Source: Candidatus Berkelbacteria bacterium (lineage in GTDB: Bacteria; Patescibacteriota; UBA1384; JACPKC01). Taken from it: a stretch of DNA of 64,000 nt. Shown in pieces: positions 1 to 63,147 of the stretch. The position numbers and the translations under genes were made by a program. The notes beneath the pieces are model-generated. The model was not told where the DNA came from and did no database searches. It was given only the letters and a program-made list of their open reading frames with translations. The first letter of the stretch is position 1. Each line of letters begins with the position of its first letter. Location of the stretch: the NCBI GenBank assembly GCA_016187225.1, contig JACPKC010000006.1, positions 25,051-89,050 on the forward strand, in the 5' to 3' direction.

Positions 1-2049
1 CTCGGCTTGCAACTTGATGTGATCAATTTTGTCAGCTCTTCTAGTCATTCTCTGTAGAGCGACTGCGCCATTTTTTCTGTTTACACTTCGTTTATGCTCG
101 TATGGAATGACCGACTTATTATAGGAAGAACTAAATTCTTCATAAACATGCCGTGATTTTCTATTCATTACACGTTCGTTTCGATAATGCTCAATGCCTG
201 CTTTTTCACTTTTCTCAAATTTTTGCAAATGAATCGTTTGACTTTTTGCCTCTTCTCGCGCCGTTTTTTTTCGGTGAGTGTGTCCCATGCTCGATGCTGA
301 AACACCGGAATTTTTTCTATACATGCTACGTTCGTGAGTTAGATGAATTACTGGTTCGAGTTGCTTTGTTTTCTGCGATTTCGGCCTTGGTTTTTGCAGA
401 TTTTCGGATATTAAAAATGGGAGATTGGGTTTAGGCAAATGGTAAGATTTTCTCACACTCGCTACACTCCCAGCAGAAGGGCGTTCTTTAGCCTTGGGTG
501 AATCAACTGATATTTTTTGTAAACATTCGTCGGTTGGAGTTTGACTGATGCTTATAGGGCAAACCCTAGTGAGTGGCATTTCAGTTTCAATGCTTTCGGC
601 TCGTCTTAAATGGCTTTCTTTTGTTTCTTCTTGTAACGGCCGATGGGGCGGACTGATGGCGGGGGCAGGTTGCTCTATGCATTGAACGTTCGTTGGTTGT
701 ATAATGAGTTCATCTCTAGAAACTAAACTATCTGTTTTACATTCGCAGATGCTCTTAATGACATATTCTGCATCTATGATTGGCTCAATCAAATCTATTT
801 TTGATGTAATTCTATCGCTAGCTATGTGATTCTTTAAACTCTTATGTTCTGTTTTAATATGGTCTGCCTGGATTTTTGTATCAACTTCGTTTGGTTCAAT
901 ATGTTCTATCCAATCAGTTTTTTCTCCTGGCTGCACATTTTCGGCTAGGTTTTTTAGCTCAAATTCAAATGAATCTTCTCGCTTAATTTCATTCTCACTC
1001 TCATTCTTTTCAGCATCCTCATCGGTATTCCCTGCTTTCCCATCTACGTACGTGCACACATTCAACGTTCGTTTAATTTGTGTTGGAGCAGGCATGTTGA
1101 GTGTTTCGTCCTCTATGCCGGAGGAGTTATCTAGGTCGGCTGGTTCTATTGGCAGAAGAATATCTAGTTCTTCGAGATTCGACTTCATCTCAACTCCAAG
1201 ACATTTGCCGACTTGAAGTATATTTGGGTCGCCCAGAGTGCGATAAATGTTTGTCATCAAAATGTTCACGTTCGGAATATGTGTAGCCCAAATGTGCTCT
1301 CCTCGCACAGAAAGCTCATTCACCAGAGTCGCATATAAACTAAATTGTTCAGGGTCGGCTAAGTCCCAATGCACAAGAGGCGAGCCGTCTTCATTGATGA
1401 GCTCAAAACCAGTTTCTGTGCGTAAAAGTGAAAAGTGAAAAAGCTGATGCTTCTCTTCTTGCTCAAGCGATTCTATTTTTTTTACGGGCCTGAATGGATC
1501 ATCTTGAGGGTCGATGTTCGTGACTTGATAGTCCGGTAAAGATGTTTCTGGCAGGATCGTCGCGCGGACAATATGAGTCTCTGGTTCAAGCTCAAAGTAC
1601 TGTTCTTGGCGAGTCTCTGGCGATTTTCTAAGCGCAGAGCCGAACTGGTTGAGTTCTGTGCACAATTTTTCAATTTCTTCAAATTCTTGCTCGCCGATAA
1701 GATCAAAGTCAAGTTCAACAAAACCATTGTCACGCAGTACCTGGGAGAGATTATCACTTTGCTCGAGAGGAATGAGGGGCATGAGTAGTTTGTGTGGAGA
1801 AATCTCTTTAGGACATTGCCAGAGGAGAAGAGAATGACTTTGATTCTCATTTTGCGACAAGTAATACCAAGTCTCTTTATTTGTTTGTGGATAAAATGCA
1901 AAAAAATCTTGCCCAATTCCTTCATGGCAAGATTCTTGTACTTGGCACTCGTCCTGATTTGGTTTGCAATCAACTAACTCAAGATTCTCATTGACTGGAT
2001 GATGCTGTTCAAGCTCGCGTGAAGATAGTTGTGCCTCAAGAGTTTCCAT
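1..2049 (-). CDS. Large acidic hypothetical protein, at least 683 aa, 5' partial at the window edge. The C-terminal region has degenerate basic repeats of the form xERxMNRKxxx.
   Basis: Manual reverse-complement translation from ATG at 2049-2047 (RBS GAGGAG 6 nt upstream) is open through all 683 codons to position 1. The ORF is absent from the track, probably because it has no stop inside the window. The track ORFs 153..434(+) and 1482..1973(-) are other frames or the antisense of this gene. The region is AT-rich relative to the core. Confidence 0.6.
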   Translation of the reverse strand, partial: METLEAQLSSRELEQHHPVNENLELVDCKPNQDECQVQESCHEGIGQDFFAFYPQTNKETWYYLSQNENQSHSLLLWQCPKEISPHKLLMPLIPLEQSDNLSQVLRDNGFVELDFDLIGEQEFEEIEKLCTELNQFGSALRKSPETRQEQYFELEPETHIVRATILPETSLPDYQVTNIDPQDDPFRPVKKIESLEQEEKHQLFHFSLLRTETGFELINEDGSPLVHWDLADPEQFSLYATLVNELSVRGEHIWATHIPNVNILMTNIYRTLGDPNILQVGKCLGVEMKSNLEELDILLPIEPADLDNSSGIEDETLNMPAPTQIKRTLNVCTYVDGKAGNTDEDAEKNESENEIKREDSFEFELKNLAENVQPGEKTDWIEHIEPNEVDTKIQADHIKTEHKSLKNHIASDRITSKIDLIEPIIDAEYVIKSICECKTDSLVSRDELIIQPTNVQCIEQPAPAISPPHRPLQEETKESHLRRAESIETEMPLTRVCPISISQTPTDECLQKISVDSPKAKERPSAGSVASVRKSYHLPKPNLPFLISENLQKPRPKSQKTKQLEPVIHLTHERSMYRKNSGVSASSMGHTHRKKTAREEAKSQTIHLQKFEKSEKAGIEHYRNERVMNRKSRHVYEEFSSSYNKSVIPYEHKRSVNRKNGAVALQRMTRRADKIDHIKLQAE

Positions 2050-2172
2050 ATTCTCCTCTGCAACGGAGGTGAGCACTGTAAATTTCTTAAGGCTGGTTGT
2101 CGGACTCCCACTCGAAGTGGATTACCGTTGCGGCACAGCGCCGGAATCTCACCGGACTTTCCCTAAAGATAT
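2050..2172 (-). promoter_or_regulatory. Cobalamin (B12) riboswitch, short class without the large P6 extension, plus its expression platform
   Basis: The minus-strand RNA reads AGGGAAAGUCCGGUGAGAUUCCGGCGCUGUGCCGCAACGGUAAUCC...GGGAGUCCGACAACCAGCC. This matches the conserved cobalamin-riboswitch core (AGGGAA, GGUGnnAnUCC, GCnG, CCGCAACGGUAA) and the 3' AGUCnGAnAACCnGCC element. A downstream CACCUCC can pair with the GAGGAG RBS of the ORF that starts at 2049. Confidence 0.75.
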
Positions 2173-2236
2173 GATAGTGACCTTAAGATTAAATTGTTAT
2201 TTTTATTCTAAACTAGATAGTCTTTAACGTGTCAAG

Positions 2237-2265
2237 AAAAGCCCCTTTTGAGGGGCTTTTCTTGA
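2237..2265 (-). terminator. Rho-independent terminator hairpin aaaagccccTTTTGAggggctttt, bidirectional
   Basis: A perfect GC-rich 9-bp stem is flanked by A-runs and T-runs. It lies directly after the 58-aa ORF and before the riboswitch promoter region. Confidence 0.7.
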
Positions 2266-2279
2266 GCTTGCACTATTTT

Positions 2280-2456
2280 TTACTGTGCTGGCGGAGTTCC
2301 TTGAGGCATCCCACCGCCCATGCCATCGTCTTCCTTAGTGCTTTCATCTGGCATCCCCGCTGGAGCCGGGGTATCAGATGGAGCCGATGGAGCGACTGGC
2401 GGCACGCCGCCTGGTTGATCATCACTTCCAGGCATATTTGGCATATCGTCGAACAT
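2280..2456 (-). CDS. Small 58-aa Pro/Gly/Met-rich acidic protein (MFDDMPNMPGSDDQPGGVPPVAPSAPSDTPAPAGMPDESTKEDDGMGGGMPQGTPPAQ)
   Basis: The ATG has a strong RBS (GGAGGTCGAT-ATG). The ORF is below the 60-aa cutoff of the track. It ends 15 nt before the terminator hairpin. Confidence 0.45.
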   Translation of the reverse strand: MFDDMPNMPGSDDQPGGVPPVAPSAPSDTPAPAGMPDESTKEDDGMGGGMPQGTPPAQ

Positions 2457-2542
2457 ATCGACCTCCTAGCCTTTTACTACTAACTGCATCATATCAGGAG
2501 AATCAATCAGGTAAATGCATACTTGTGGATAACACATTGACT

Positions 2543-3070
2543 CTAGTATTCATAGACATAAAACGGTCCGTATTGGGTGGTGCGTTGGAACGTCTCACTT
2601 GGCTTGCGGTTTGGGAGCGGAAAACAATAGGCAATAACGCGCGCGCCATGCCTTAATTCTTGTTCGAATTTTTTTTCAAGGCGTTTCATAATGTGCGGTA
2701 AGAGATAGCAATAAACAGTCGAAGTTTTTTTAAGATTGGTTGTATATAAATTTGCGCATCGAAAAGTCAATCCAGGAATCCCGCGGTGCCGTAACCGAGC
2801 AAATAAAACCAGCGGCAGAGAAATATCGACGCCTTCGGCTAAACTAGAGCCGTGTTTGCAAACATAGGCACAGAGCATTCCTCGGCCGGAACCGAGTTCT
2901 GTAAAATGTTCGCCTGGAGATAGTTGCGCGAGCGCGAGTATCACATGAAAGAGTCCGGGAGGTGTGCTAACAAATTGCGCTCCGCCAGCCACTGATATCA
3001 GGCCGGACAATCCCAAAATCAATAAACCGAGTGCGACACTAAGAAAAATTGTGCTTATCACGAGTGTCAT
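2543..3070 (-). CDS. Small class I SAM-dependent methyltransferase-like protein with an N-terminal TM helix
   Basis: The sequence ELGSGRGM resembles the glycine-rich motif I of Rossmann-fold methyltransferases. The N-terminal 40 residues are hydrophobic. Confidence 0.5.
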   Translation of the reverse strand: MTLVISTIFLSVALGLLILGLSGLISVAGGAQFVSTPPGLFHVILALAQLSPGEHFTELGSGRGMLCAYVCKHGSSLAEGVDISLPLVLFARLRHRGIPGLTFRCANLYTTNLKKTSTVYCYLLPHIMKRLEKKFEQELRHGARVIAYCFPLPNRKPSETFQRTTQYGPFYVYEY

Positions 3071-3178
3071 AGTTACAATATAACTAAAATTAAATTTGGT
3101 GGTGGCTGTATATAAAGTAGCGCGAATTCATCTACAACAAGAACTTGACACTATACTAATCGAAATCCCGCACGTTTT

Positions 3179-4560
3179 GTGCGGGATTTTATGAAAGCAG
3201 AGCCATTTAACGTCAGAGTGATTGCAGAACAATCCACCTATAAAAAACCGCTTGGCATTTTGGCATGGCACCCAGATCGTCTCGCCCGCAATAGCGTTGA
3301 TGGTGGAAAAATAATTTACTTGGTGGACACCGGAGCCATTGCTTCTTTGCGCTTTCCGCAATTTTGGTTTGAGCCAACTCCGCAAGGGAAATTTATGTTG
3401 AACATCGCTTTTGGACAAAGCAAATACTATGTGGATTCTCTTTCCGAAAACACGAAAAGGGGTTTGCGCCAAAAGGTTCGCAGGGGCGAATATCCGAGCG
3501 TTGCGCCCATTGGCTACATAAACGATGTCCGCACAAAATCAATCGTGGTGGATAGAAAGAAAGCTCGGATTATTCGCCAAGCGTTTGAGCTATACGCAAA
3601 AAGTAATTCGCGACTGGAGGACATTTCGAACTTTTTGGCGCAACGCGGAATACTATCCCACGGCGGAAAGAGAATCCACAAGACGAGGGCGACTTTTATC
3701 CTTTCCAACCCGTTTTACACCGGATTATTCAAATATGGCGGTGAACTTCACGAAGGAAAGTACGAGCCAATAGTGGCAAAGAAACTTTTTGATCAAGTAC
3801 AAGAAGTGATGAAACGGAGAAGTCGTCCGCGCCACAAACAGAAAAATGAACCACAAGTATATTGCGGACTCCTTTCGTGCGCGTCATGCGGTATGCAAAT
3901 CACTGGCGAATACAGGGTGAAGACGCAGTTGAACGGCACACAACATTTCTATACTTACTGCCACTGCACCAAGAAATCTAAAACTCAAAAATGTCCTGAA
4001 CCCTGTATTCGCCAAGAATCGTTGGACGCGCAAATTTCATCACTTCTGCAAAAAGTTTCTTTGCCACAAGATTGGGCGAACTATCTAAACGGAAGACTTG
4101 AAAAAGACAAAACGGAATCCGCCCAATCTGTTTCTGCTTTTGTTGAAAAAAATCAAAAAATGATTACTGACATCACAGCGAAGCTCCAGCGACTTTTAGA
4201 CGGCTATTTAGAACAAGATATAGACAAGGAAGTATATCGTGCTGAAGAATCAAAATTGCTATCCGAGAAAAAGTCGCTGGAGGAGGAAATATCTCGTAAT
4301 CAACAAAAGCAGAAACATTGGCTCGAACCGATGGAAAAGTGGATAAAGGACGCGGGAAATATGGAAAAAATTGCATTGGATAGCAACCTTTTTGCTAAAA
4401 AGGTTGCTGCCAAAGAAATCTTTGACTCGCACCTCTTTCTTGGCGAAAAAACAGTCCGCCCCGCCGAAGGCGGGACTCCGAATTCGTTTGGAAAAATGGG
4501 GGGAAATCAGTGGGACGCGCTTCGCGCGTCCCACGCTCTTGGGTCTTCTGTATCTTTTTC
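3179..4560 (+). pseudogene. Large serine recombinase (resolvase/invertase family), N-terminally truncated remnant
   Basis: The ORF begins inside the catalytic domain (LAWHPDRLARN...GKFMLNIAFGQSKYYVDSLSENTKRGL...PIGYIND). There is no upstream sequence in any frame for the catalytic-Ser N-terminus. The recombinase domain, a Cys-rich zinc ribbon (CGLLSCASCG...CHC...C) and a coiled coil follow. The track ORF reads on through a terminator hairpin and the opposite-strand tRNA-Gly, which is an artifact. Confidence 0.6.
4509..4533 (-). terminator. Hairpin gtgggacgcgc-ttc-gcgcgtcccac, likely terminator of the atp operon/tRNA-Gly transcript
   Basis: A perfect 11-bp GC-rich stem sits downstream of tRNA-Gly on the minus strand. 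A U-rich tract (uuuuucc) follows on the minus strand after a short spacer. Confidence 0.45.
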
Positions 4561-4568
4561 TACAAAAC

Positions 4569-4642
4569 TGGAGCGAGTGAGGGGAATCGAACCCCCGTCT
4601 CAACCTTGGGAAGGTCGCATTCTGCCATTGAACCACACTCGC
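4569..4642 (-). tRNA. tRNA-Gly (anticodon CCC), CCA encoded
   Basis: Manual fold. The acceptor is GCGAGUG/CACUCGC and the anticodon stem is CGACC/GGUUG. The anticodon loop is UUCCCAA and the T-loop is UUCGAUU. The discriminator is U. Confidence 0.85.
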
Positions 4643-4666
4643 AGACGCCTTCCGTATTGTAAACGA

Positions 4667-7351
<2,685 letters not shown>

Positions 7352-17732: not shown

Positions 17733-18166
17733 TTGCGTACCTCGATTTTTACGCATCTTTTGCCCTGACGGCTGAAAGAAAAATACAAGAGATAGTGTGC
17801 CTGTTCAATAATTTCAGGCAGATTGTCAATCCATTCAACGAGTGTCGCTCCTTCAGGATTTTCGAGGGTTAAGCCAAGCGCTTCGAAATCTTGTTTGCGA
17901 GTCAAGCGATAAAGATCAAGATGGTGAAGACGTTTAATACCTCTCACTGCTTGTGGCAACTTATAAATTTGCTCATAAACAAAGGTTGGCGAGATAACTT
18001 CGGCTTGTAGACCTAAATCGAGCAGTAAATGACGGACAAAGGTTGTTTTACCAGTACCTAAAAAACCAACCAAGCCGACAATTAGACCGGGTTTTAAGTT
18101 TTTCGCGAGCTCGTGAGCGACTGCCGTCAGTTCATTCAAAGTCTGAATTGGGAAAACTCGTTTCAT
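17729..18166 (-). CDS. tsaE: tRNA threonylcarbamoyladenosine biosynthesis protein TsaE (YjeE)
   Basis: A P-loop GFLGTGKTTFVRHL in a roughly 145-aa protein. Confidence 0.8.
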   Translation of the reverse strand: MKRVFPIQTLNELTAVAHELAKNLKPGLIVGLVGFLGTGKTTFVRHLLLDLGLQAEVISPTFVYEQIYKLPQAVRGIKRLHHLDLYRLTRKQDFEALGLTLENPEGATLVEWIDNLPEIIEQAHYLLYFSFSRQGKRCVKIEVRK

Positions 18167-20367
18167 ATTTTCATTCCGGCTTGGATCAAACCTATTGATC
18201 GTATCTCCAATTTCTGTCGAAGAGCAAGTAAGACACCGTCGACTAACAGAATACCGGCCATGAGGAGCGCCGCCAAGGCTCCGTAACTGCCTAATCGCCC
18301 TAGGGTAAGTGTTGGTCGGATAATTTTAGCGCCAAGCACGCGAGTAAAAGGCGGGGTACTTTGACTATCAGGCAAGACGCCGATTTCTGATTTGACAAAT
18401 AAGTCGGGCGCAAGATCAATCACTTCCTCATCATCTGCTACTCCGTCTTCATAGTCGCCGACAGACTCTCTTGTTGCCACCGCTGGATCTTCTCTTTCCG
18501 ACTCAGTTGAATCTGATTGTGCGCTGATTATTTCTTCAGTTTCACTCGTCGTCTCCTCTCTCAACACAGTCAACTCTTCGGCATCCAAGACACGAATTGT
18601 CAAAGGTTCAAGAGCCACAATAATTCCCTGTCCAGAAATTTCGCTCTGTTCAACTAGCGCAGGAAACACGACGCCTTTTTTACGAGAAAGATGGAAACTG
18701 TGATTTTCTGTTTGAATAATTGGCACAGAACCAGTTTTAACGACTATCCCTTGGAAGACTGTCACCTTTAACAGGTTTAACTCCTCGAGCTCGTCAAGGG
18801 ATTTCTTTTTCAGCTCTTGATGGCCAATGTGTTTAGCATCGTCAGGATTTGCCAGAAGGAGACGCGGTAAAGCGGCTTTGGAAACTTTAGCCACGATTTC
18901 AATGCGATCACCCGGCTGAAATGTAAGTGCGACACCATCACGAAGCTGAAGTTCAGCGGCAATCTGATCATCCCCGACAACAAGATGATGATCTGAATAA
19001 GCGCCTTGCACCAAAAGTACAGTTGCTTCGGTTCGGATCGTTTGATTTGCGAACTCATCCTTACCAATAATCAACTCCCTGAATGAATGGAATTCAATTG
19101 AAGAATCAGATGAGTCTTGCTCTTCGGATTCTTTAACGCCTCCCTCTGGAAGAATATCGGCATTTTCCACCCCGGGCGTGGGCGATGTCCAACCCCAACT
19201 GCCTTTTTTTGACCAACTTTTGTTAAACGACGCGCTCCCAAAACTCACATTCTCCACCTCTACCCCATTTGGAGCGATCAAGCGCACCATATCACCTGAA
19301 TTATTTAACTGTAACTTGGTTTGATTGCCTCCAAAAATTACTCGCGAACGACCCTCGATAACAACTGAATCCTCAAACGTGTAGGGGCGACTGCCGCCCT
19401 CATTAATATCGTCAATCTGCCAACCGATTAAGTTCACTGCCGTCTCACCCAGATTCTCAAGCTCAACAAACTCCTCGGCGCCCTCATTTGGGCGAGGGAG
19501 AATTTCCGATAGATGAATATCCTTACTGATCTGATTTGCCACACAGGGATAAGAAAAATTTTGGACAACCGATCCATTCCGCAAAACCTCGAGGCGCGCC
19601 TCGAGAAGACCGAATTGTGTCGGGAGTTCGAGGAAAAATCGGTATTTATTTGTTTCAATCAGCTCGCCTTCAGGACTTTGATTTTGCAAAATCAACCTTA
19701 AACGTTCGGGCACGCCGCCACTTAAAGCAATATCGAGCGGAATAGCGCCGCCTTGTTCCGGCCAAATCAAGCGGCAAGTTTGTTCCGCAAACTTAAGCGT
19801 CATGCTTCGTTCAGGGGTACCTAGATCATTGAGGTTGGCGTCTAAATTACGGGCTGTATTCGCATTTTGCCAGGCAGTCGCTTGAGCGCCAGATTGGCTA
19901 AAATCAACACGCTCCATCGAAGTTGGAGGCGATGTGGCGCCGGCAAAAGGCTTGCCTCCATCACCAGCTTGATCGATGACGTTTGCATCCGTAGCGCGCA
20001 ATTCGAGCGCAAGGGCGCTATTGCTAAGAGAAAGTTTCGAGTTAATCAAATCTGGTTCAAGATTAAGCGCCGACTCGCCGCCGCTGAAAGTATCGGCGGG
20101 ACCATTATTCGCGATCAGAAAAAAATCTCCCGGAGCAAGTTGGGTGTTCTCGGGAATCGTAATCAACTCGCGAGGTTCACTGCTCATAGACCAAATACTC
20201 CAGTGCGACAGATCAATAGATTCGGCGCTAATATTTTTCAGTTCAAGCCACTCATCGGCAGTCGAACGGCTTGATCCGGCCCAGGCAATTTCGCTAATGC
20301 CGACTGTTGGCGTGCTTGCTGAAACCCAACTTGGCAGTAAAAATAGAAAAAGAATTAGCCACGTCAT
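18163..20367 (-). CDS. Secreted surface protein with two lamin-tail (LTD) domains and a C-terminal TM anchor
   Basis: A signal peptide, then the LTD signatures ISEIAWAGS...EWLELKN and LSEILPRPNEGAEEFVELENLG, and a hydrophobic C-terminus. Confidence 0.7.
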   Translation of the reverse strand: MTWLILFLFLLPSWVSASTPTVGISEIAWAGSSRSTADEWLELKNISAESIDLSHWSIWSMSSEPRELITIPENTQLAPGDFFLIANNGPADTFSGGESALNLEPDLINSKLSLSNSALALELRATDANVIDQAGDGGKPFAGATSPPTSMERVDFSQSGAQATAWQNANTARNLDANLNDLGTPERSMTLKFAEQTCRLIWPEQGGAIPLDIALSGGVPERLRLILQNQSPEGELIETNKYRFFLELPTQFGLLEARLEVLRNGSVVQNFSYPCVANQISKDIHLSEILPRPNEGAEEFVELENLGETAVNLIGWQIDDINEGGSRPYTFEDSVVIEGRSRVIFGGNQTKLQLNNSGDMVRLIAPNGVEVENVSFGSASFNKSWSKKGSWGWTSPTPGVENADILPEGGVKESEEQDSSDSSIEFHSFRELIIGKDEFANQTIRTEATVLLVQGAYSDHHLVVGDDQIAAELQLRDGVALTFQPGDRIEIVAKVSKAALPRLLLANPDDAKHIGHQELKKKSLDELEELNLLKVTVFQGIVVKTGSVPIIQTENHSFHLSRKKGVVFPALVEQSEISGQGIIVALEPLTIRVLDAEELTVLREETTSETEEIISAQSDSTESEREDPAVATRESVGDYEDGVADDEEVIDLAPDLFVKSEIGVLPDSQSTPPFTRVLGAKIIRPTLTLGRLGSYGALAALLMAGILLVDGVLLALRQKLEIRSIGLIQAGMKI

Positions 20368-21209
20368 AATTTTTCTCCTAAAGACACCGTTTTACCCTCA
20401 GTTAATTCACCGTCGAGCGAAGCTGAACCCCTAGCGGGTGGCAAGCGATTAGGCGAGATGTCGATTTCTTGCAGATGTTCTTTGGCTTCAGTGGTCTGGG
20501 TGACAAGATCCTCATGAAAATGATCGGGATCATAGTCATGGGGAGCGTGCGCGTGTAGTTGCTTAAGACGACTCTGAAGTTCTGCCTCTTTTGAATTTGC
20601 TTGAGAAAGCTCTAGGGCGCGGGGCGACATAATTTCTTCATGGCCAGCAGTCCCAATGCGCATTGCTAGGCGATCATTGAGCATCAGAATGGTATTTGCG
20701 ATCACATGCGGTTTGGGGACATAATTCATAACAAAATTCGGCGCCTCACCAGCGCTCTCAACAACAACTGTCCCATAGCGGAAAAAAGTTTGAATATAAC
20801 CATTCATTTGCGCAGACACATCCTGGACACGGAGTAAACTTAACTCTGCCACTCTTCGATTAAATAAACCCACTTGTTTAACATGAAGCAAACGTTCAGG
20901 TGTAATTATAGCCACGTCAAGATAATGCTCAATCCACGCAGTTAAAAAGACCGCATCCGTGATCAACAAATATCCTCCGATCGTGAGAGATGTAAGAACT
21001 AAGTTTAAGCCTTTGAAGAAACCTATACCCTGGTAACTCACGACCGTGAAAAAAATGACGATCGGAATTATAAGCATGACAAGCACAAATAACAGCCAGC
21101 CAGCGAATGCCATCCAATGTCTCCGGACAAAGATTAGGATTTCTTCATTTTCAAGTTGCCCGGGGAAGAGATCGCTCTCCTTGCCGGTGACAAGATTAGT
21201 CTGAATCAT
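20364..21209 (-). CDS. Membrane protein with a bacterial PH (YdbS/YdbT-like) domain
   Basis: Two TM helices followed by a PH-like region, judged by eye. Confidence 0.4.
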   Translation of the reverse strand: MIQTNLVTGKESDLFPGQLENEEILIFVRRHWMAFAGWLLFVLVMLIIPIVIFFTVVSYQGIGFFKGLNLVLTSLTIGGYLLITDAVFLTAWIEHYLDVAIITPERLLHVKQVGLFNRRVAELSLLRVQDVSAQMNGYIQTFFRYGTVVVESAGEAPNFVMNYVPKPHVIANTILMLNDRLAMRIGTAGHEEIMSPRALELSQANSKEAELQSRLKQLHAHAPHDYDPDHFHEDLVTQTTEAKEHLQEIDISPNRLPPARGSASLDGELTEGKTVSLGEKL

Positions 21210-24679: not shown

Positions 24680-25404
24680 CCGTTTATCTCCTTACCCTGG
24701 TGACCGGGCAAAACATACCGACCGATCTTTTCGTCTGAAACTATTCGACCGTGTTCCATAGCAATAACTCGTCGTTTTAAGTTATTAACAACTTCTTTGT
24801 TATGAGTGGCCAAAAGAACAGTGGTTCCGCTCCGATTGATGCGTTCAAGAAGCTCGATAATCTCGCCGGTTGTAGCCGGATCAAGATTGCCGGTCGGCTC
24901 ATCGGCAATCAGAATTCGCGGCGAATGAATCATAGCCCGAGCAATGGCAACACGCTGTTTTTCGCCACCGGAAAGTTCATGCGGGTAGTTTTCACCCTTA
25001 TCAGCCAATCCGACTAGGGTCAAAATTTTTGGCACTCGCTCTCGAATTTCAGCCGTTGAAATATCAGATACTTCGAGCGCAAAGGCAATGTTTTCCCAAA
25101 CAGTTTTTGCGGGCAAAAGTTTAAAATCTTGAAAAACAACACCCACTTTGCGTCGATAATAAGGCAATTCACGTGGTTGCAAGAGTGTGATATCGCGCTC
25201 GGCAATTAAAATTTTGCCATGGTCGGGTTTCTCCTCGGCAATCAAAAGCCGGATCAGGGTGCTCTTACCGGCGCCAGACGGGCCAACGATGCTTACAAAT
25301 TCGCCCTTGGCGATCTCTATGTTGATGTCATCAACCGCGATTGCGCGAGTTCGAGAACCGGATGTCCGAACATAAGTTTTTGCGATGTGTTGCAACTCAA
25401 TCAA
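24676..25404 (-). CDS. ftsE: Cell division ATP-binding protein FtsE
   Basis: Walker A GPSGAGKST, the ABC signature LSGGEKQRVAIARA, and Walker B ILIADEPTGNLD. Confidence 0.9.
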   Translation of the reverse strand: MIELQHIAKTYVRTSGSRTRAIAVDDINIEIAKGEFVSIVGPSGAGKSTLIRLLIAEEKPDHGKILIAERDITLLQPRELPYYRRKVGVVFQDFKLLPAKTVWENIAFALEVSDISTAEIRERVPKILTLVGLADKGENYPHELSGGEKQRVAIARAMIHSPRILIADEPTGNLDPATTGEIIELLERINRSGTTVLLATHNKEVVNNLKRRVIAMEHGRIVSDEKIGRYVLPGHQGKEING

Positions 25405-34792: not shown

Positions 34793-36424
34793 TCATGTCG
34801 ATGCTTGTTTTAGACGTGCCAGAATCAACTCTTTCTGTTCTTTTTCAGCCTCGAGCCAAGCGCCAAGTCGCGGGCCAGAGCGGACGCCGCCCAATACTTG
34901 ATAGAGTGTCATAAAGGCTTCTCTAACTTCAAGTGACGTCTTGTTTGCAGAAACCCGTATTACTTCTGTTAGTTGATCGCTAACCCAATTTGTATCCGCC
35001 AAAGCTTGAGCTAAATCCTCGAGAAATTTTTTTTGGTGGTCTGAAAGTTCAAGTTTAGGCAGTGTCAACTGAAAGTTAAAAAGTTTACGACCCTTAAATT
35101 GCGCGAGCCAGCGCTGGGCGGCGGTGACGCGTGCGTTGAGTTCAGCGTTTTCAGATTGAGTTAAAGGTGAGTTTTTCTCATCTTCAGCATAGGCCTTAAT
35201 TGCAAAAGCAGGCTGTTGGATTAAATTAGCTAACACTCGAAACCGCACAACGTATTTTGGGGCTTCTTTCGAAGGTTCTAAGCGTACCGCTTTGTAAACA
35301 GCGCCCTCTGAACTAGTACGATTCTTATGAAAAATCTGGAGCAAGCGATCATACTCATCGTAGAGATCTGGCAGCTGATCCGCATCGGTGCGAAATTCAA
35401 TGCCAGTCCTCGGCCGCGGGCGAATCATAAGCAAGCGCAAAATTTCAGCCGGCGCCTGGGCGGTAAAGGTAGTGGCCGATACCCCAACGCCTTTTGACGT
35501 ACTCATTTTTCTGCCGTCCAAATAAATGTGCTCATAAAATAAATCTTCCGGCACACGCTCATAGTCTCGCTCTAATTGAGGTGCGAAAAGTCGCTCAAAA
35601 ACAGCCCCGGCAACATCGCGCGATCCGCCTTTGGTGTAATGATCCTTGCCCGCCCCTTCGATATCGCTTTTGTAGACGAACCACTTAGCCGCCCACTCGA
35701 TTTTCCAAGGCAGTTTGGCGCCGCCATTAAAGGGCGACCTCTTGCCCTGGTGACCACAACCGTTAGCCCACGCTTCGGCAGTGTCGCCACACCGATATAC
35801 AGCTTGCTCTCCATCCCACGCGATGATCTCGGTGCTCGCAATTTTTCCGCAGGCCTCACAACGAATATTCACCGGGTAATCGGGCAAGAGCGCCTTCCCA
35901 ACACGATCAGCGCTTCGATGCTTGACTACCTCATTATAAACCTGTCCAACGAGTTGAGCGTGCTCAAGCACAAGACGAATCGCTTCGTTAAACGTGCCCT
36001 GTTCATATTCACGAGAACTGTAAAGGGTTTCCGACTCAACGCCCAATGAGCGGTAAACCATCTCAAATTCATCGGCAAAATACCGTCCAAAATTATTTTC
36101 GAAAGTTACAACACCATTTGATGGACGATTTTTATTATCGGGCGCTGGCACAAAGCGCATTGGCATTCCGAGATACTGTTCATAAGCCGGGTCAAAGTCG
36201 GCTGGGACTTTATCGAATGGATCAAAATCATCAAATCCATAAATATAACGCGTCTCATACTCGCGCTCGCGCAGAACGCGAGTAACAGCATCGTGTAGAA
36301 GCACGCCCCTCAAGGCGCCGACATGGATGTGACCGGAAGGTGTTTTCCAGTCAGAAACAACGTAGGGAGGCGCGTGGCGCTTACTAACTCGCTCGGCTCG
36401 TTCTGCCGCCCAAAATACCTTCAT
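34793..36424 (-). CDS. lysK: Class I lysyl-tRNA synthetase
   Basis: A HIGH-type motif PSGHIHVGALRG and the KMSKS variant KMSTSKG, at the roughly 540-aa size typical of class I LysRS. Confidence 0.8.
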   Translation of the reverse strand: MKVFWAAERAERVSKRHAPPYVVSDWKTPSGHIHVGALRGVLLHDAVTRVLREREYETRYIYGFDDFDPFDKVPADFDPAYEQYLGMPMRFVPAPDNKNRPSNGVVTFENNFGRYFADEFEMVYRSLGVESETLYSSREYEQGTFNEAIRLVLEHAQLVGQVYNEVVKHRSADRVGKALLPDYPVNIRCEACGKIASTEIIAWDGEQAVYRCGDTAEAWANGCGHQGKRSPFNGGAKLPWKIEWAAKWFVYKSDIEGAGKDHYTKGGSRDVAGAVFERLFAPQLERDYERVPEDLFYEHIYLDGRKMSTSKGVGVSATTFTAQAPAEILRLLMIRPRPRTGIEFRTDADQLPDLYDEYDRLLQIFHKNRTSSEGAVYKAVRLEPSKEAPKYVVRFRVLANLIQQPAFAIKAYAEDEKNSPLTQSENAELNARVTAAQRWLAQFKGRKLFNFQLTLPKLELSDHQKKFLEDLAQALADTNWVSDQLTEVIRVSANKTSLEVREAFMTLYQVLGGVRSGPRLGAWLEAEKEQKELILARLKQAST

Positions 36425-36462
36425 GTTGGTACTATACCAAACATTCTCTCCTGATTACCAGG

Positions 36463-53563: not shown

Positions 53564-54151
53564 CTAGATTTGCGGCATGCGCCGCTCATCTAGCCACTCC
53601 CACTCGCTGGGGAGTGAGTCCCTCTCGGGGTAGGGGGTGGTATCGTCCCACCCCTGATTCTGCCACGCCGCCGTGTCGGCCCGCCGCTTGACGCGGCCGG
53701 TCATGAGGGCCTCGTCCTCCGGGGCCGAACCGGAGGATATCAGTCCCCCCTGGTAACCCCGCCACATCTGGTGGCGGAGATACTTGTCCCCCGCCAGGAT
53801 GGGTCCAAGCGAGGAATAGCACCAGGGATGCCGCGAGAGATACTCTCGCAGGAACCCCTCGAGTCCGACCTCGAACTCCAGGCGCCGAAGCGCCCGGCTC
53901 GCCGTCGCCCGCAGTTCGTGCGGGAGGGACTCCTCCTCCCCCACAAAGGGGAAGTAGGGTCCGTGTGCCGTATCTGGCACCTCCCCCAGGGCCCCAGACA
54001 ATTTGTAGTACGGGACCTGGTTGACCCGCACTCCCAGGATGGCCGGCGAGGCGATCCATCCTTGGTGCTTTCCGTCCACCTGGACGGAGTAGAGCCCGGC
54101 GACCTCGCCGGACTCTACCAGGGTCAGGGTGCTGTTCTGGGTGCTCTGCAT
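53564..54151 (-). CDS. Hypothetical 195-aa protein (MQSTQNSTLTLVESGE...) sharing a 5' module with the gene at 58185..58625
   Basis: The start is at the ATG inside the conserved roughly 135-bp promoter/leader repeat (RBS GGAGGTG). The first roughly 10 codons are homologous to the paralogous cassette. Confidence 0.5.
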   Translation of the reverse strand: MQSTQNSTLTLVESGEVAGLYSVQVDGKHQGWIASPAILGVRVNQVPYYKLSGALGEVPDTAHGPYFPFVGEEESLPHELRATASRALRRLEFEVGLEGFLREYLSRHPWCYSSLGPILAGDKYLRHQMWRGYQGGLISSGSAPEDEALMTGRVKRRADTAAWQNQGWDDTTPYPERDSLPSEWEWLDERRMPQI

Positions 54152-58872: not shown

Positions 58873-61800
58873 CTAGCGGCGGTTGAACCGCGCTTTGAGC
58901 GCCTCGATCTGGGCCTGGGCGGTGGCCGCGTCTTCGGCAGAAGGTTCTGCCGGCGCGGCTTCGCGCGCCTTAGCCCGTTTCTTGCTCTGCCCCGATCCAG
59001 CCGATTCGCTGGCGCGAACCTCCGGCTCGGGGACTTGCGGTTTGTCTTCCGGGAAGGGCGGCTCGAGCCGCACTAGCGTGAGACGGAAGGAGCCAGTGTT
59101 GACCAACTCCCTTACCTCGCTCACGTAGTACGACTTGCCCGCAACCGGCTCCGGTGAGCGGCGGTCGAGCACGAACTTGGCGTGCTTCGATCCGGCCTCC
59201 CACTGGAGTTCTCCGGTTTTGGGGTGTCGCCCCTGGCGGAACGAGAGCTTGAACCATGCACGCTGGGAGACCATCTCCTCAGCGCGCTGGTAATCAGCCT
59301 CGTACCGCTCCCGATTCCTGGCCGCCCACGCCTCGTCCGTAAGAATGACTCCCGTGAAGTCATTCCGAACGAGTGGGCAGGCGCAGTCCGTCGGGAACCA
59401 CTCGGCGGCAACAGTGCCATCGATGAAAATTTTCACCGTGGCCACCGCATCCCACCGTTTATGGGTCCCTTCCGGCCGCACCTCGGCCAGGACAGCTTCG
59501 TCGTACTGGGTCAGCCCACTGTTTGACTGGGCCCAGACCACCCGGTTGATCGGGTGGAGGTTGGTCTGGCGGCAAACCAAACGGGTTTGACCCGTCTGGT
59601 CGCCCCACTCGGTATGCTCTTCAACCATCGGGTGGGAGCAAACCGGGCAGGTACCAAGGAGCGTGCGCAGGCGATCGTTCGCCGATCGCTTCAGCTCCTC
59701 TTTCTGCCGCTTGGCGTCCTCGGCCTTCTTTTGGAGCTCGGCCGTTTTCACGGAGAGCTCCTCAAAGAGCGCGCACGTCGACACGAAGTCGTGGCGCTTA
59801 AAGGCTTCGGTCGCCTCAGTCGCAAGGCGCTCAACCTCCCTCTCCTCCTTATAGGAGAGCAAACCATCGCGCTCATAGGTCGCGATCGTTTCCTGCTCCT
59901 CCCGAATGAGGGCGAGGGCGGTCTCCGCCTCGGGGCGCTTGGTCTCGTTGGTCTGGTGGTGAGCCAGCGCCAACTCGACCCGCGCCCGGACAGTCGCGAG
60001 CAGGTCGAGCGCCTTCTTCGGCTCCGGGGTGCGGCTGTAATAGCCGTCGCTCGTCCGGAGCAAGGCGCGCGCCTGCTCGATCTTTGCCGAGAGTCCCTCC
60101 GACTCGTACCAGCTGTCTTTCCCCGCTTCACGCGAGGTCAGACCGTAAGCCTGGTACTCGTCGAGGTTCACCCCGGCAAGCAGTTGGGCGACCGCGTCGG
60201 CTTCAGCTTGCGCTTCGGCCACGTAGCGGTCGCGATTTCTGCGTTCGTCTTCCTCGGCATCGAGCTTGGCCTTGGCTTTGATGGCCTCGGCCTGGCTCGT
60301 CTGCGCCTCCTCGCAAGTGCGGTACCATTTCTGGTACCAGCTCGCGTAGTAGGCGCGGAACGCCGGGTAGGCGAACGCCCCGGTCACGGCGTCATAGATC
60401 TCGGGTTCGGCGACCGCGGGGAGCGGCTCCAAACCCTTGACCACGAGTGTCGTGTCGGGGTGGTTGGTCGTGAACGCCTGCCAGGCCAACTCCAGCCGTT
60501 GCGCCTCGATCTGCTCGCGCAGGGTCGAGACGTCGGTGCCAGAGATGGCGGTGTAGCCCTTGTCCTGCAGCTTGAGCGTGTAGCTCGCGCCGCTCGGAAT
60601 GAGATGCTCCACCACTGCCTGGTCGGCGTTCTGGATGGTCGCCACCGACACCTGGATGGTGACGGTCTGCTTCTTCTCGCTCGAGTAGTACGACGCGCTG
60701 TCGTACTTATACTCGACGTTGCAGACCTCGCCGCCGATCAGCACGGTGTCGGGCGCCTGCTCGCGGATGTACGTTGCTTCCTCACCGGAAACAAACGTCG
60801 CCCGCGCCAGGCCAAAGTCGATGCCCTCGATCGCCGGATCGTCCATCCGGTAGATCTCGCCGAGTCGCTCGGCATAGATCTTGGCCGCCTCACTTTGAGT
60901 GAGCGGCCCCCGAACGGCGCCCCCGGACTTGGCTTGAAGTTCGGTCAGCTCGGCATTGACTGCCTGGCCAACTTCCCCCAGCCAAACTCGGGCAAACTGG
61001 TCGGCCAAGGCTTTGGTCGCCTCGGCGTTTCTCTGGGCGGCCACCACCGTCGTTGCGACTTCGGTGCCGTTGAACACCAGCACCTCGTCACAGACGACCT
61101 CGCCTCGCTCCTCACTCCACCGATAGTTCCGGCAGAGATTGGAGGCGAGGTGAGGCGCCACCTCGGCCAGCCAAGTCGGGTCAACCGCCGAGGCATTTTT
61201 GATCAGGCGGAGCGTCATTGAACGCCCTCGCCGATCTGTAATGCCAAGGTCGAACGGTTGGCCGACCAGCCACTCGGGCAAACTCGAGCGCTTCATCAAG
61301 CAGCTCTCCTTTGCCAGCTCTCGTTCGCCGTTGCCGCCGTTCTGGTATCGACCACTATAGGAAGAGCTCTTCCTATACAAATGGTCAACCAACCCAGTCG
61401 AGCAGGCCTTGAGAGTGTCTTGCTGAGAGCCGAAGCTCCCAAACTCAACATCCCCGACCCCCCGCACGGCGTCAGCAAGCGTGGGAATCTGGGCGTAGGC
61501 ACGCTTGATGTTCATGCCCACAATCCCAGCTTCCCGCCAGTCAACCTGCTTGAGGCTCCGATCCGCCTCCCGCAGGGCCCGTTTGACCTGCTCTCTCCGG
61601 CTCTCGCGCTGTTTGCGCTTGAGGTTCTTGTTAAAAACCTCTTGCCGCGGCGCGGTGCCGAGCAGGTGCTCAATCGTGTTCTGGCCAATCAAGGCGACCA
61701 GAACCGCCAGTTGGGCAAGTAGATCGCTCTCAGTTTCCTTGACACCGAAAAACGATCGCCACTCGCCACTTCTGGCAACGATGTCGCCGGCGTCAAGGCA

Positions 61801-63108
61801 AGCCGCGATGACAATCACGTCATCCACGACTCCCCGTTGCGCCGCTTCTAGGATCATCCGGGCAGAGTGCACCTCGATCGGCAAGCGATTAATCGCATAG
61901 CCGACTTCGGTCACTTTCCCGGCCTGGTCGATGGCGCCGAGACCTTTGAGCGCCTTCTTCGCATCAGCAATGACCTGGCGGTCAAGCTGATGGAAGAACG
62001 GCAGCTCGGCTGCGTCGTACCCGGCAATGGCCAAACGGAGCACCGTCTGGTCAAGCCGGGTGCGCATGATCTCGGGCACCGGGTAGCCGGGCCGCTCGGC
62101 GCTGGGGCAGTGGTCGATGTAGACCCCTTCGCCCAAGCGGCCGGTTCGGCCTCGGCGCTGTTGGCCGCGAGCTTTGGCGATCGGCTTGAGGTACAAGCCT
62201 TCTACGCCACTGACCAGCTCGACGCGTCGTTCCATGCCGGAGTCGACAACGGCGAGCCGGCGCCCGGGACTCGGCACTAGCGTACGGCCGGTTTCCAAGG
62301 CGTTGGTTGAAACCACCACCTTGGGCCGGTCGTACCGCTTGTAGGCGCGGTCTTTTTCCTCGCGCTTGAGCTTCCCGTAAAACGGGATCAGCTCGGCATC
62401 GAGGCTTTGGAGCCGCGCAACAGTCGCCACGATCTCGGCCTCGCCCGGCTGGAAGCAGAGGACGTCAAAGCCCTCAGCGACCAACTTGGCAATGTCAGCC
62501 TCGATCGTGGCACCAGCCGGTCGGTCGACGATTGGGAACTGCCTCCCCGGCACCTTGAACACCGGCGCGTTCCCGCGCTTGCGCGCGAGCTCGTCCGAGG
62601 CCAAAGTAGCCGAGAGGACCACGATCTTTTTAAAGACCGAGTTCCCTTCCTGGAGGTGCTTCCACGCCCAGGCCTCCAGAGTGGATTGGTTCGTATTCCA
62701 CTCGTGGAGCTCGTCGATGATGAGGATGTCGAACCGGTTGTGACCGGCCAACTCCCTCACCAGCGCGAGACCGTCGGTGCAGAACAGAATTGACGTCTCC
62801 GCCGAATCCTGCCTGCCCTTGCCGGTCCGGTAGCCGACGGTCGTGCCAAACGGCACGCCCATGAGCTGGGCGACATACTCGCTCGTGCCGATGACCGTTT
62901 CGATCAACGGCTCGGTTACAAGTACGCTGTTACCCAGCTCATGGTACCACTGGGGCACCATTGTCGACTTGCCGGAGCCGGTTTCGGCCTCGACAATCAT
63001 GTAGGGCGCGGCGCATCCAATGATCGCGGCTTTGAAGGCCTCGATCGGGAGCGCATCACGCCCGTTGCTGGTCGGGGAGCTGTTATTCACCATGCCATTC
63101 TTGGTCAT
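58873..63108 (-). CDS. HrpA-like DEAH/RHA-family ATP-dependent helicase (1411 aa) with a long C-terminal extension containing a Cys4 zinc-finger-like motif
   Basis: Motif I ETGSGKST, motif II DELHE, motif III SAT and motif VI QRRGRTGR. An HA2-like region (ELPFFHQLD...LGAID) follows. The C-terminus is a coiled coil with CPVCSHP...C...CAC and an Ala/Glu/Lys-rich tail. Confidence 0.75.
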   Translation of the reverse strand: MTKNGMVNNSSPTSNGRDALPIEAFKAAIIGCAAPYMIVEAETGSGKSTMVPQWYHELGNSVLVTEPLIETVIGTSEYVAQLMGVPFGTTVGYRTGKGRQDSAETSILFCTDGLALVRELAGHNRFDILIIDELHEWNTNQSTLEAWAWKHLQEGNSVFKKIVVLSATLASDELARKRGNAPVFKVPGRQFPIVDRPAGATIEADIAKLVAEGFDVLCFQPGEAEIVATVARLQSLDAELIPFYGKLKREEKDRAYKRYDRPKVVVSTNALETGRTLVPSPGRRLAVVDSGMERRVELVSGVEGLYLKPIAKARGQQRRGRTGRLGEGVYIDHCPSAERPGYPVPEIMRTRLDQTVLRLAIAGYDAAELPFFHQLDRQVIADAKKALKGLGAIDQAGKVTEVGYAINRLPIEVHSARMILEAAQRGVVDDVIVIAACLDAGDIVARSGEWRSFFGVKETESDLLAQLAVLVALIGQNTIEHLLGTAPRQEVFNKNLKRKQRESRREQVKRALREADRSLKQVDWREAGIVGMNIKRAYAQIPTLADAVRGVGDVEFGSFGSQQDTLKACSTGLVDHLYRKSSSYSGRYQNGGNGERELAKESCLMKRSSLPEWLVGQPFDLGITDRRGRSMTLRLIKNASAVDPTWLAEVAPHLASNLCRNYRWSEERGEVVCDEVLVFNGTEVATTVVAAQRNAEATKALADQFARVWLGEVGQAVNAELTELQAKSGGAVRGPLTQSEAAKIYAERLGEIYRMDDPAIEGIDFGLARATFVSGEEATYIREQAPDTVLIGGEVCNVEYKYDSASYYSSEKKQTVTIQVSVATIQNADQAVVEHLIPSGASYTLKLQDKGYTAISGTDVSTLREQIEAQRLELAWQAFTTNHPDTTLVVKGLEPLPAVAEPEIYDAVTGAFAYPAFRAYYASWYQKWYRTCEEAQTSQAEAIKAKAKLDAEEDERRNRDRYVAEAQAEADAVAQLLAGVNLDEYQAYGLTSREAGKDSWYESEGLSAKIEQARALLRTSDGYYSRTPEPKKALDLLATVRARVELALAHHQTNETKRPEAETALALIREEQETIATYERDGLLSYKEEREVERLATEATEAFKRHDFVSTCALFEELSVKTAELQKKAEDAKRQKEELKRSANDRLRTLLGTCPVCSHPMVEEHTEWGDQTGQTRLVCRQTNLHPINRVVWAQSNSGLTQYDEAVLAEVRPEGTHKRWDAVATVKIFIDGTVAAEWFPTDCACPLVRNDFTGVILTDEAWAARNRERYEADYQRAEEMVSQRAWFKLSFRQGRHPKTGELQWEAGSKHAKFVLDRRSPEPVAGKSYYVSEVRELVNTGSFRLTLVRLEPPFPEDKPQVPEPEVRASESAGSGQSKKRAKAREAAPAEPSAEDAATAQAQIEALKARFNRR

Positions 63109-63147
63109 GGTAAATTTCCCTTTCGGGAAAGCCGTCTAGCCTTTCGG

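Follow-up and report, generated by a model that had tools for sequence, protein, structure and literature searches.

What does a B12 sensor control when no B12 gene stands behind it? Riboswitches are reliable pointers to gene function, and genes under B12 switches almost always make, import or bypass B12. The 64,000-nucleotide stretch analyzed here (contig JACPKC010000006.1 of a Candidatus Berkelbacteria bacterium, positions 25,051 to 89,050; hereafter the window, in whose numbering coordinates are given) carries a cobalamin riboswitch on its minus strand, directly in front of a large acidic open reading frame (ORF), P0001. Positions 2047-2200 (-) are most likely the 5' leader of an operon acting as a translational OFF switch, and the unit under its control probably comprises two genes in one operon, those of P0001 and a ClpB-like ATPase. 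This interpretation was considered likely, and the four alternatives weighed below, taken together, unlikely.

Cobalamin Aptamer in the Window

The only riboswitch reported in the 64 kb by Rfam 15 was a match to RF00174 (Cobalamin). Its score was marginally above the gathering score of 31.5 bits, with an E-value of 2.5e-4 for the whole 64 kb searched with all 4227 families and of 1.6e-6 for the 401-nucleotide (nt) region alone; RF00174 was also the best-scoring member of clan CL00101 in the window. The initial annotation had quoted a cobalamin core on the minus strand, and the quoted letters were confirmed there as UCUUAAGGU-(16 nt)-GGGAAAGUCCGGUGAGAUUCCGGCGCUGUGCCGCAACGGUAAUCCACUUCGAGUGGGAGUCCGACAACCAGCCUUAAGA, followed by AAUUUACAGUGCUCACCUCCGUUGCAGAGGAGAAUAUG. 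All parts of the conserved core (GGGAA, GGUG..A.UCC, GCUG...CCGCAAC.GUAA and AGYC.G....CC.GCC) were found at 2163-2091. The elements of the aptamer, with lengths in base pairs (bp), were as follows.

2074-2200 (-): RF00174 match, covariance-model search, 31.9 bits
2085-2188 (-): aptamer proper, coordinates and pairs computed
2188-2180 paired with 2093-2085 (-): P1, 9 bp
2157-2140 (-): P4 hairpin
2137-2129 (-): P5 (2 bp) plus L5
2131-2135 (-): L5 loop, 5'-UGCCG-3', proposed kissing partner of L13
2120-2108 (-): P6 hairpin, CCACU-UCG-AGUGG, 5 bp with a 3-nt loop
2107-2091 (-): B12 box, GAGUCCGACAACCAGCC

The P6 extension (P7-P11) was absent, Rfam aligning 6 nt where the consensus has 60, and the short architecture initially described was borne out by the small P6 hairpin. 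The element is thus a compact, P6-extension-less (class-II-like) cobalamin riboswitch. The interval first assigned to it, 2050-2172, marked a real element and was too short, as it missed the 5' strand of P1. The estimate of about 40 nt to the start codon was close, as 35 nt separate the ATG from the 3' end of P1.

Comparative Support for the RNA Fold

The comparison covered 14 distinct loci, including the window together with the Logan contig L004, which is 100% identical to window positions 1-3308 and reaches 7.4 kb further. The loci that bear a name belong to the candidate phyla radiation (CPR), as does the ultra-small source bacterium; one further context was known from a listing without DNA. 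A covariance model, R1, was built from nine leaders, and it matched a riboswitch upstream of the syntenic gene in all 14 loci with 46-153 bits.

Standard pairs occupied 96.1% of the cells of the 14-sequence alignment, which is model-fitted and hence biased towards structure. Changes on both sides of a pair were observed in 21 of the 29 base pairs, with compensatory change in 7/8 pairs of P1, 3/5 of P4, 5/5 of P6, 1/3 of lower P6 and 4/4 of P13; the 2-bp P5 never varied. None of 500 shuffles reached the observed pairing values, and when partners were slid by 1-3 columns, 32-48% of the cells were paired. The complementarity of P1 was also recovered in the relatives by a model-free scan independent of R1. 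The aptamer core (GGGAA, GGUGA.AUUCC, GCUGUGCCGCAAC.GUAA and the B12 box) was nearly invariant.

The scores of the relatives against Rfam varied. L131 reached 42.5 bits to RF00174, over the threshold, and L005 30.8 bits, while L007 matched RF01482 only, with 42.8 bits against a gathering score of 50. The gathering-threshold scan of the context loci called a riboswitch only in L004, although the intergenic regions plainly hold the same core; L005 and L010 have longer P6 arms than the window. The comparative evidence for the riboswitch is stronger than the Rfam score of the window, and the RF00174 match and the covariation across the 14 loci both uphold the cobalamin class originally assigned.

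Expression Platform and Proposed Mechanism

Downstream of the aptamer, the leader consists of the following elements.

2070-2084 (-): J1/13, single-stranded linker of 15 nt between P1 and P13
2055-2069 (-): P13 regulatory hairpin, 5' strand CCUC at 2069-2066, 3' strand GAGG at 2058-2055
2065-2059 (-): L13 loop, CGUUGCA
2053-2058 (-): Shine-Dalgarno (SD) sequence GAGGAG, read from the sequence
2049-2047 (-): start codon ATG, end of the expression platform

Four of the six SD bases form the 3' strand of the 4-bp P13 stem. This stem varied among loci (CCUC/GAGG, CCUUC/GAAGG, CUCC/GGAG and others), and all four of its pairs covaried. The proposal that a CACCUCC segment sequesters the ribosome-binding site was therefore sustained, in the form of the pairing of 2069-2066 with 2058-2055.

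The L13 loop is complementary to L5. In 13 loci it reads CG-N(1-2)-GCA, the reverse complement of the invariant L5 (UGCCG) with a bulge of 1-2 nt. The first two and the final three loop positions were fixed, and only the bulge varied, both in identity and in number (UU, YA, UC or a single A). In L134, L5 reads UCGCG and L13 reads CGC-U-GA(A), again a reverse complement with a bulge. The L5-L13 kissing loop of cobalamin riboswitches is ligand-dependent and always has unpaired nucleotides in L13 (PMC5028336). The bulged reverse complementarity fits this rule, and a kissing loop is proposed for the window from sequence complementarity.

With a corrinoid in the P3-P6 junction, L5 (2135-2131) would kiss L13 (2065-2059) through the pairs UGC:GCA and CG:CG, leaving two U bulged. 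Docking would lock P13 and bury GAGG (2058-2055) of the SD sequence, and no ribosome could then load at the ATG at 2049. Without ligand, the 4-bp P13 would be weak and the SD sequence accessible. Since P13 takes its 3' strand from the SD sequence, ligand-stabilised docking should block initiation, which argues for an OFF switch. No terminator was found in the leader by a terminator scan. The comparative evidence appears to support this regulatory mechanism reasonably well.

Two other pairings were tried and rejected. Direct kissing of L5 with the SD sequence was ruled out, only 2 bp being possible, and an anti-sequester pairing GGUGAG:CUCACC was dropped as unconserved in the relatives.

In most relatives, the true SD sequence lies in a second, stable hairpin, for example CCCUUCUC-UGCGC-GAGGAGGG. 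In seven of nine relatives, L13 and the 3' strand of P13 showed strong complementarity to this second hairpin, in both its anti-SD strand and its loop. The duplex energies were -12 to -17 kcal/mol, and in seven of nine relatives at most 14 of 300 shuffles were as good. The partners co-vary, as in CGCAGCAGAAGG:CCUUCUCUGCG versus CGUUGCAGGAG:CUCUACUGCAACG. In the absence of ligand, L13 and the P13 3' strand would capture the anti-SD strand and free the SD sequence; with ligand, the kissing loop would retain L13, and the anti-SD strand would close on the SD sequence. This suggests that most relatives run the same OFF logic through a relay. The two relay states were not discriminated by thermodynamic folding alone. 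An L13 that serves in both a kissing loop and an anti-anti-SD helix would be an added variant of cobalamin riboswitch mechanisms.

An extra GC-rich hairpin without a U-tract was noted in the J1/13 linker of L005, L007 (where it reads CUCCGG-UUU-CCGGAG), L009, L010, L064, L068 and L131; the window, L132 and L133 have no such hairpin. By analogy with env8HyCbl, in which the length of this linker plays a role (PMC5028336), the hairpin may shorten the effective linker length relevant to kissing-loop docking.

Upstream of the leader, two signals were read from the letters.

2234-2260 (-): intrinsic terminator, GCCCC-UCAAAA-GGGGC followed by UUUUCUU, ending an upstream 58-amino-acid (aa) ORF
2205-2235 (-): putative sigma-70-type promoter, TTGACA at 2235-2230 and TAGAAT at 2210-2205, 19-nt spacer

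The same terminator palindrome was reported on the opposite strand by a scanner. The putative promoter was missed by a consensus promoter scanner with a spacer limit of 16-18 nt, and the corresponding site of the relatives reads TTGAC(A/G)-N17-TA(C/T)G(N)T. Together, the upstream terminator and the promoter-like site indicate that the riboswitch leader would belong to its own transcription unit.

Probable Regulated Genes

The first gene behind the leader runs off the window.

1-2049 (-): regulated ORF P0001, first 683 codons, starting at ATG 2049-2047

P0001 comprises 791 aa and is identical to the NCBI entry 'hypothetical protein HYW32_01350 [Candidatus Berkelbacteria bacterium]'. It had been described as a large acidic protein, correctly so: its isoelectric point is 5.2 and its net charge -40, the first half being acidic (-51) and the second basic (+11). 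No family was found for it in Pfam, NCBIfam, PADLOC or PHROGs, and its family alignment, A3, had no match in PDB sequences or Pfam. Neither a word-indexed search nor a full HMMER pass over 1.84 billion representatives returned any relative other than P0001 itself; a profile search with A3 likewise returned only P0001, its prefilter probably being swamped by low-complexity words. A match to a VCBS-repeat adhesin was rejected as spurious, inflated by seven repeats. The single-sequence AlphaFold model was unusable, with a predicted local distance difference test (pLDDT) value of 31.8.

The second gene lies outside the window, on L004, and encodes a 547-aa AAA+ protein beginning 8 nt after the stop codon of P0001. 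Its D2 ring is of the ClpB type (Pfam AAA_2 3.3e-62, ClpB_D2-small 7.3e-21; ClpB in the PDB 1.4e-100), with intact Walker A and B motifs and an intact pore loop, GYIGYEEGG. The D1 ring, matched by AAA_14, is short and divergent (GKRGVGKH, IFIDEPE). No IGF/IGL ClpP-docking loop, Clp_N domain, M-domain coiled coil or AAA_lid_9 match was found. Against the ClpB equivalog TIGR03346, the protein scored 397.7 bits, below the cut-off of 1232, with only positions 522-843 matching, and it is therefore termed ClpB-like rather than ClpB. Behind it on L004 follow a convergent trxB, a P-type ATPase, an unknown protein and 5-formyltetrahydrofolate (5-FTHF) cyclo-ligase.

Neither the operon nor the annotated parts of the window yielded a B12- or corrinoid-related gene, a transporter or a B12-dependent enzyme, in agreement with the original claim that the target lies outside known B12 regulons.

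Conservation of the Module

The pairing of riboswitch and large ORF, which the initial annotation had proposed to look for in related genomes, was present at every locus examined, and the riboswitch is carried by all 14. The order riboswitch, large acidic ORF, ClpB-like ATPase was found in L005, L007, L009, L010, L064, L131, L132 and L133, and also in L134, L057, L099 and L100; L068 is cut off. At L005/6, L007/8, L009, L010, L131, L132 and L133, a large ORF without a Pfam family (781-1091 aa) reaches up to or into the start of the ATPase, and a convergent trxB comes next; no context obtained deviated from this layout. The stop codon of the large ORF often overlaps the start codon of the ATPase (ATGA in several loci). 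The ATPase orthologues measure about 544 aa and share 46-53% identity, two of them being labelled Berkelbacteria, and the short ATPase family was named in several CPR phyla.

Homologues of P0001 were recognized as the large ORF of nine other loci, with 16-21% identity over the eight full-length ones. Motifs near the N-terminus (L..HG.A; Y.LQLVRTETG.FE; YR.LGDP..L..G) are common to them, as are a domain at the C-terminus (..IRPL..) and a charge pattern running from acidic to basic. The statement that the protein has no recognisable family thus held for the libraries and had to be amended otherwise, since at least nine very divergent homologues exist in conserved synteny. Two of these loci, L064 and L068, were added by a metagenome scan with the core pattern, and their large ORFs fall into the same protein family.

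The same scan added L057, L099 and L100, each with the riboswitch, an acidic Pfam-less ORF of 617-891 aa and the ClpB-like ATPase. At L134, an ATPase of 39% identity overlaps a 699-aa acidic ORF by 4 nt, and the riboswitch scores 46 bits with R1. The first ORFs of L134, L057, L099 and L100 showed no similarity to the A3 family (hhalign, full-length hidden Markov model (HMM), motif HMM and blastp) and no detectable similarity to each other; only the position, size and acidity of the first ORF are kept there. A motif likeness of these positional analogues seen by eye (a beta-hairpin, then '..LL..G') was not significant.

Literature searches on cobalamin riboswitches in CPR/Patescibacteria, and on their association with ClpB, gave nothing relevant and no account of the pairing described here. 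The conserved module joins a known sensor, the cobalamin riboswitch, to a new and conserved output.

Comparison with Known Systems

The closest described architecture is that of env8HyCbl (class II; Johnson et al. 2012; Polaski et al. 2016, PMC5028336). Like the window element, it has a compact four-way-junction aptamer without P7-P11, a short single-stranded J1/13, a P13 loop complementary to L5 with bulged nucleotides, and a ribosome-binding site in or beside P13; control is translational in env8HyCbl and is proposed to be so in the window. Several differences were noted. The best Rfam model for the window is RF00174, not the AdoCbl-variant (RF01689), its SD sequence lies in the 3' stem of P13 and not in the loop, and its linker measures 15 nt compared with 7. 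The bulged L13 nucleotides are the pyrimidines UU, in contrast to the two strictly conserved unpaired purines of class II. Most relatives add the second SD hairpin and the relay helix, and the targets are unrelated to B12.

Riboswitches of Anaerolineae (L001, Aggregatilineales; L003, Bellilinea) share almost the same core and the short P6 with the window, whereas they precede canonical genes, namely those for a BtuF-like binding protein and cobO, cobT and cobS. Riboswitches of Anaerolineae were the only ones returned when genome contigs were scanned with the core pattern, in a collection that does not contain the source genome. In metagenomes, a near-identical core precedes genes for prenyltransferase-toroid, NIR_SIR-domain and Peripla_BP_2 proteins. 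As near-identical cores stand before genes of canonical corrinoid context, the ligand in the window is argued to be a corrinoid still.

Near-identical aptamer cores were also seen in the metagenome loci L065, L047, L091, L117 and L063, where the first ORF has no Pfam family. The first ORFs behind such cores partly form clusters of 3-5 related proteins, apparently further uncharacterised members of the B12 regulon.

In Mycobacterium tuberculosis, ppe2 is followed by the cobalamin-related genes cobQ and cobU, which provide a B12 link, whereas the only partner in the operon of the window is the ClpB-like ATPase. A B12 riboswitch is reported to lie upstream of ppe2 (PMC11260477), its first regulated gene being fast-evolving and of uncertain function, as in the window.

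With ClpB/Hsp104 disaggregases and ClpV, the L004 ATPase shares a D2 ring (about 50% identical to that of ClpB) with Walker A and B motifs, the GYxGYEEGG pore loop and the D2-small domain, as well as the lack of a ClpP-binding loop. It differs from them in its length of 547 aa, in having neither Clp_N nor M-domain, in its reduced D1, and in being riboswitch-controlled together with a hypervariable acidic partner.

Alternative Explanations

Several observations weigh against a riboswitch-controlled operon. The Rfam score of the window exceeds the threshold by only 0.4 bits, and several relatives fall below it. Thermodynamic folding alone did not single out the aptamer (z-score -0.04 versus shuffles), and it predicted a paired SD sequence whether the aptamer was constrained or not; folding being uninformative on this point, the switch would depend on a tertiary contact that folding cannot model. 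Within the main clade, L5 and the fixed part of L13 are invariant, so that their covariation comes from the single locus L134, in a shifted register. Co-transcription of the AAA+ gene is deduced from spacing only, and no independent sign of B12 use by the source organism was seen.

The alternative that survived best accepts the aptamer as genuine and holds that the selected target is the ClpB-like ATPase, the large ORF being a fast-drifting upstream cistron that carries ribosomes to the coupled AAA+ start. Within the module, only the ATPase is indeed well conserved (39-53% identity), whereas the large ORF drops to 16-21% and in L057, L099, L100 and L134 shows no detectable similarity; the stop/start overlaps in several loci fit such coupling. 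However, all 14 loci maintain an open frame of 617-1091 codons, the homologous set conserves its charge pattern and shares N- and C-terminal motifs, and a plain leader would need no 2-3 kb. A mere carrier role was therefore rated quite unlikely.

It is also conceivable that the scaffold was kept while its specificity moved to a different ligand, or to one corrinoid form without a bearing on B12 nutrition; the missing link between target and B12 would then be explained. Riboswitch folds are known to include variants of differing specificity. Within the cobalamin clan, specificities for different corrinoids are reported (PMC9600662, PMC7367189). A non-canonical target in every locus and the low Rfam scores would accord with such a shift. 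Against this stand the near invariance of the cobalamin-defining core and its near-identical occurrence before cobO/cobT/cobS, BtuF-like and other corrinoid-context genes in other phyla. A shifted ligand was judged improbable.

A third possibility, mobile defence or island cargo (Dodola- or PDC-M37-like) that landed beside the riboswitch, drew on matches of the AAA+ protein to PADLOC PDC-M37B (3.8e-40) and DolB (6.7e-32), and on the position of the module in the window, where the GC content is lower and a tRNA gene and the remnant of a serine recombinase lie alongside. The PADLOC matches, however, cover only the generic AAA_2 core; no DolA (DUF6414) was found, and the partner has no PADLOC or Pfam match. 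The same housekeeping neighbours recur in divergent genomes (a methyltransferase upstream and convergent trxB, mostly also the P-type ATPase and 5-FTHF cyclo-ligase), which is the opposite of island behaviour. The riboswitch accompanies the module in all 14 loci, there were no PHROG matches, and a search for att-like direct repeats, made with an island from the tRNA/recombinase to the ORF in mind, found none. An origin as island cargo was accordingly judged very improbable.

That the element is a chance or decayed resemblance without function is hardly credible: a score 0.4 bits over the threshold and a minimum-free-energy fold no better than shuffles would permit it, but compensatory changes in P1, P4, P6 and P13 across the 14 loci, the conserved position directly upstream of the same gene pair and the 42.5 bits of L131 speak against it.

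Possible Biological Role

For the riboswitch-controlled operon, a role can be put forward only tentatively. The operon may be induced at corrinoid scarcity and encode a protein-remodelling pair, in which the large disordered protein would be a client or adaptor of the ATPase, serving a starvation or host-interaction response of these host-dependent bacteria and not B12 metabolism. This role was preferred because the operon contains no membrane or corrinoid-related protein.

A more far-reaching proposal, which we regard as doubtful, is that CPR/Patescibacteria, which dwell on host cells and are unable to synthesize corrinoids, recruited a B12 riboswitch as a sensor of host supply. B12 scarcity would then turn on a hypervariable, bipolar-charged, largely disordered protein together with a minimal Hsp100 unfoldase for host interaction, corrinoid piracy or dormancy. 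If true, the B12 regulon would gain a further, new arm, and Hsp100 ATPases a novel class of functional partners.

Either the proteins do something new with corrinoids, or bacteria that rely on partners for cofactors use B12 to gauge nutritional or host status in general. Both readings would give a first functional handle on a gene pair found in several CPR lineages.

Neighbouring Genes and Remaining Features of the Window

The 58-aa ORF upstream of the leader (2280-2456 (-); MFDDMPNMPGSDDQPGGVPP...) is rich in Pro, Gly and Asp and has its own SD sequence and a strong intrinsic terminator; no family was found for it in any library searched. It is preceded by a 175-aa gene resembling S-adenosylmethionine (SAM)-dependent methyltransferases (2543-3070 (-)), which weakly matched Methyltransf_25 as well as a protein-lysine methyltransferase of archaea and is not part of the riboswitch-controlled unit. 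In L007, L009, L131 and L133, an equally long gene lies directly upstream of the riboswitch.

The block of methyltransferase, riboswitch and large ORF adjoins smpB and transfer-messenger RNA (tmRNA) in four relatives (L007 580-927, L009 237-578, L010 690-1072, L131 773-1135). In the window, the same block adjoins tRNA-Gly, a recombinase remnant and the atp operon; the arrangement suggests a rearrangement or an old integration at the window site.

The recombinase remnant is a large serine recombinase/integrase ORF at 3179-4702 (+), apparently without the N-terminal catalytic region, as its matches to Pfam Resolvase and to the PHROG 95 integrase begin only at profile positions 67 and 159, respectively. 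At its 3' end, the ORF overlaps tRNA-Gly(CCC) at 4569-4642 (-), and contig L004 breaks inside it, at window position 3308. The GC content is 40-45% at window positions 1-4500 and about 50% elsewhere.

The rest of the window comprises ordinary CPR housekeeping genes, including an F-type ATP synthase operon, SecA, a penicillin-binding protein, and alanyl-, seryl- and class-I lysyl-tRNA synthetases, the last being of archaeal type and located at 34793-36454 (-). Other features are a 742-aa protein with two lamin-tail domains (18163-20391 (-)) and a 1420-aa DEAD/HA2 helicase-like protein (58873-63135 (-)). A 96-nt tRNA-Ser(AGA), not listed by the Rfam gathering-threshold scan, was called by ARAGORN at 53708-53803 (-).

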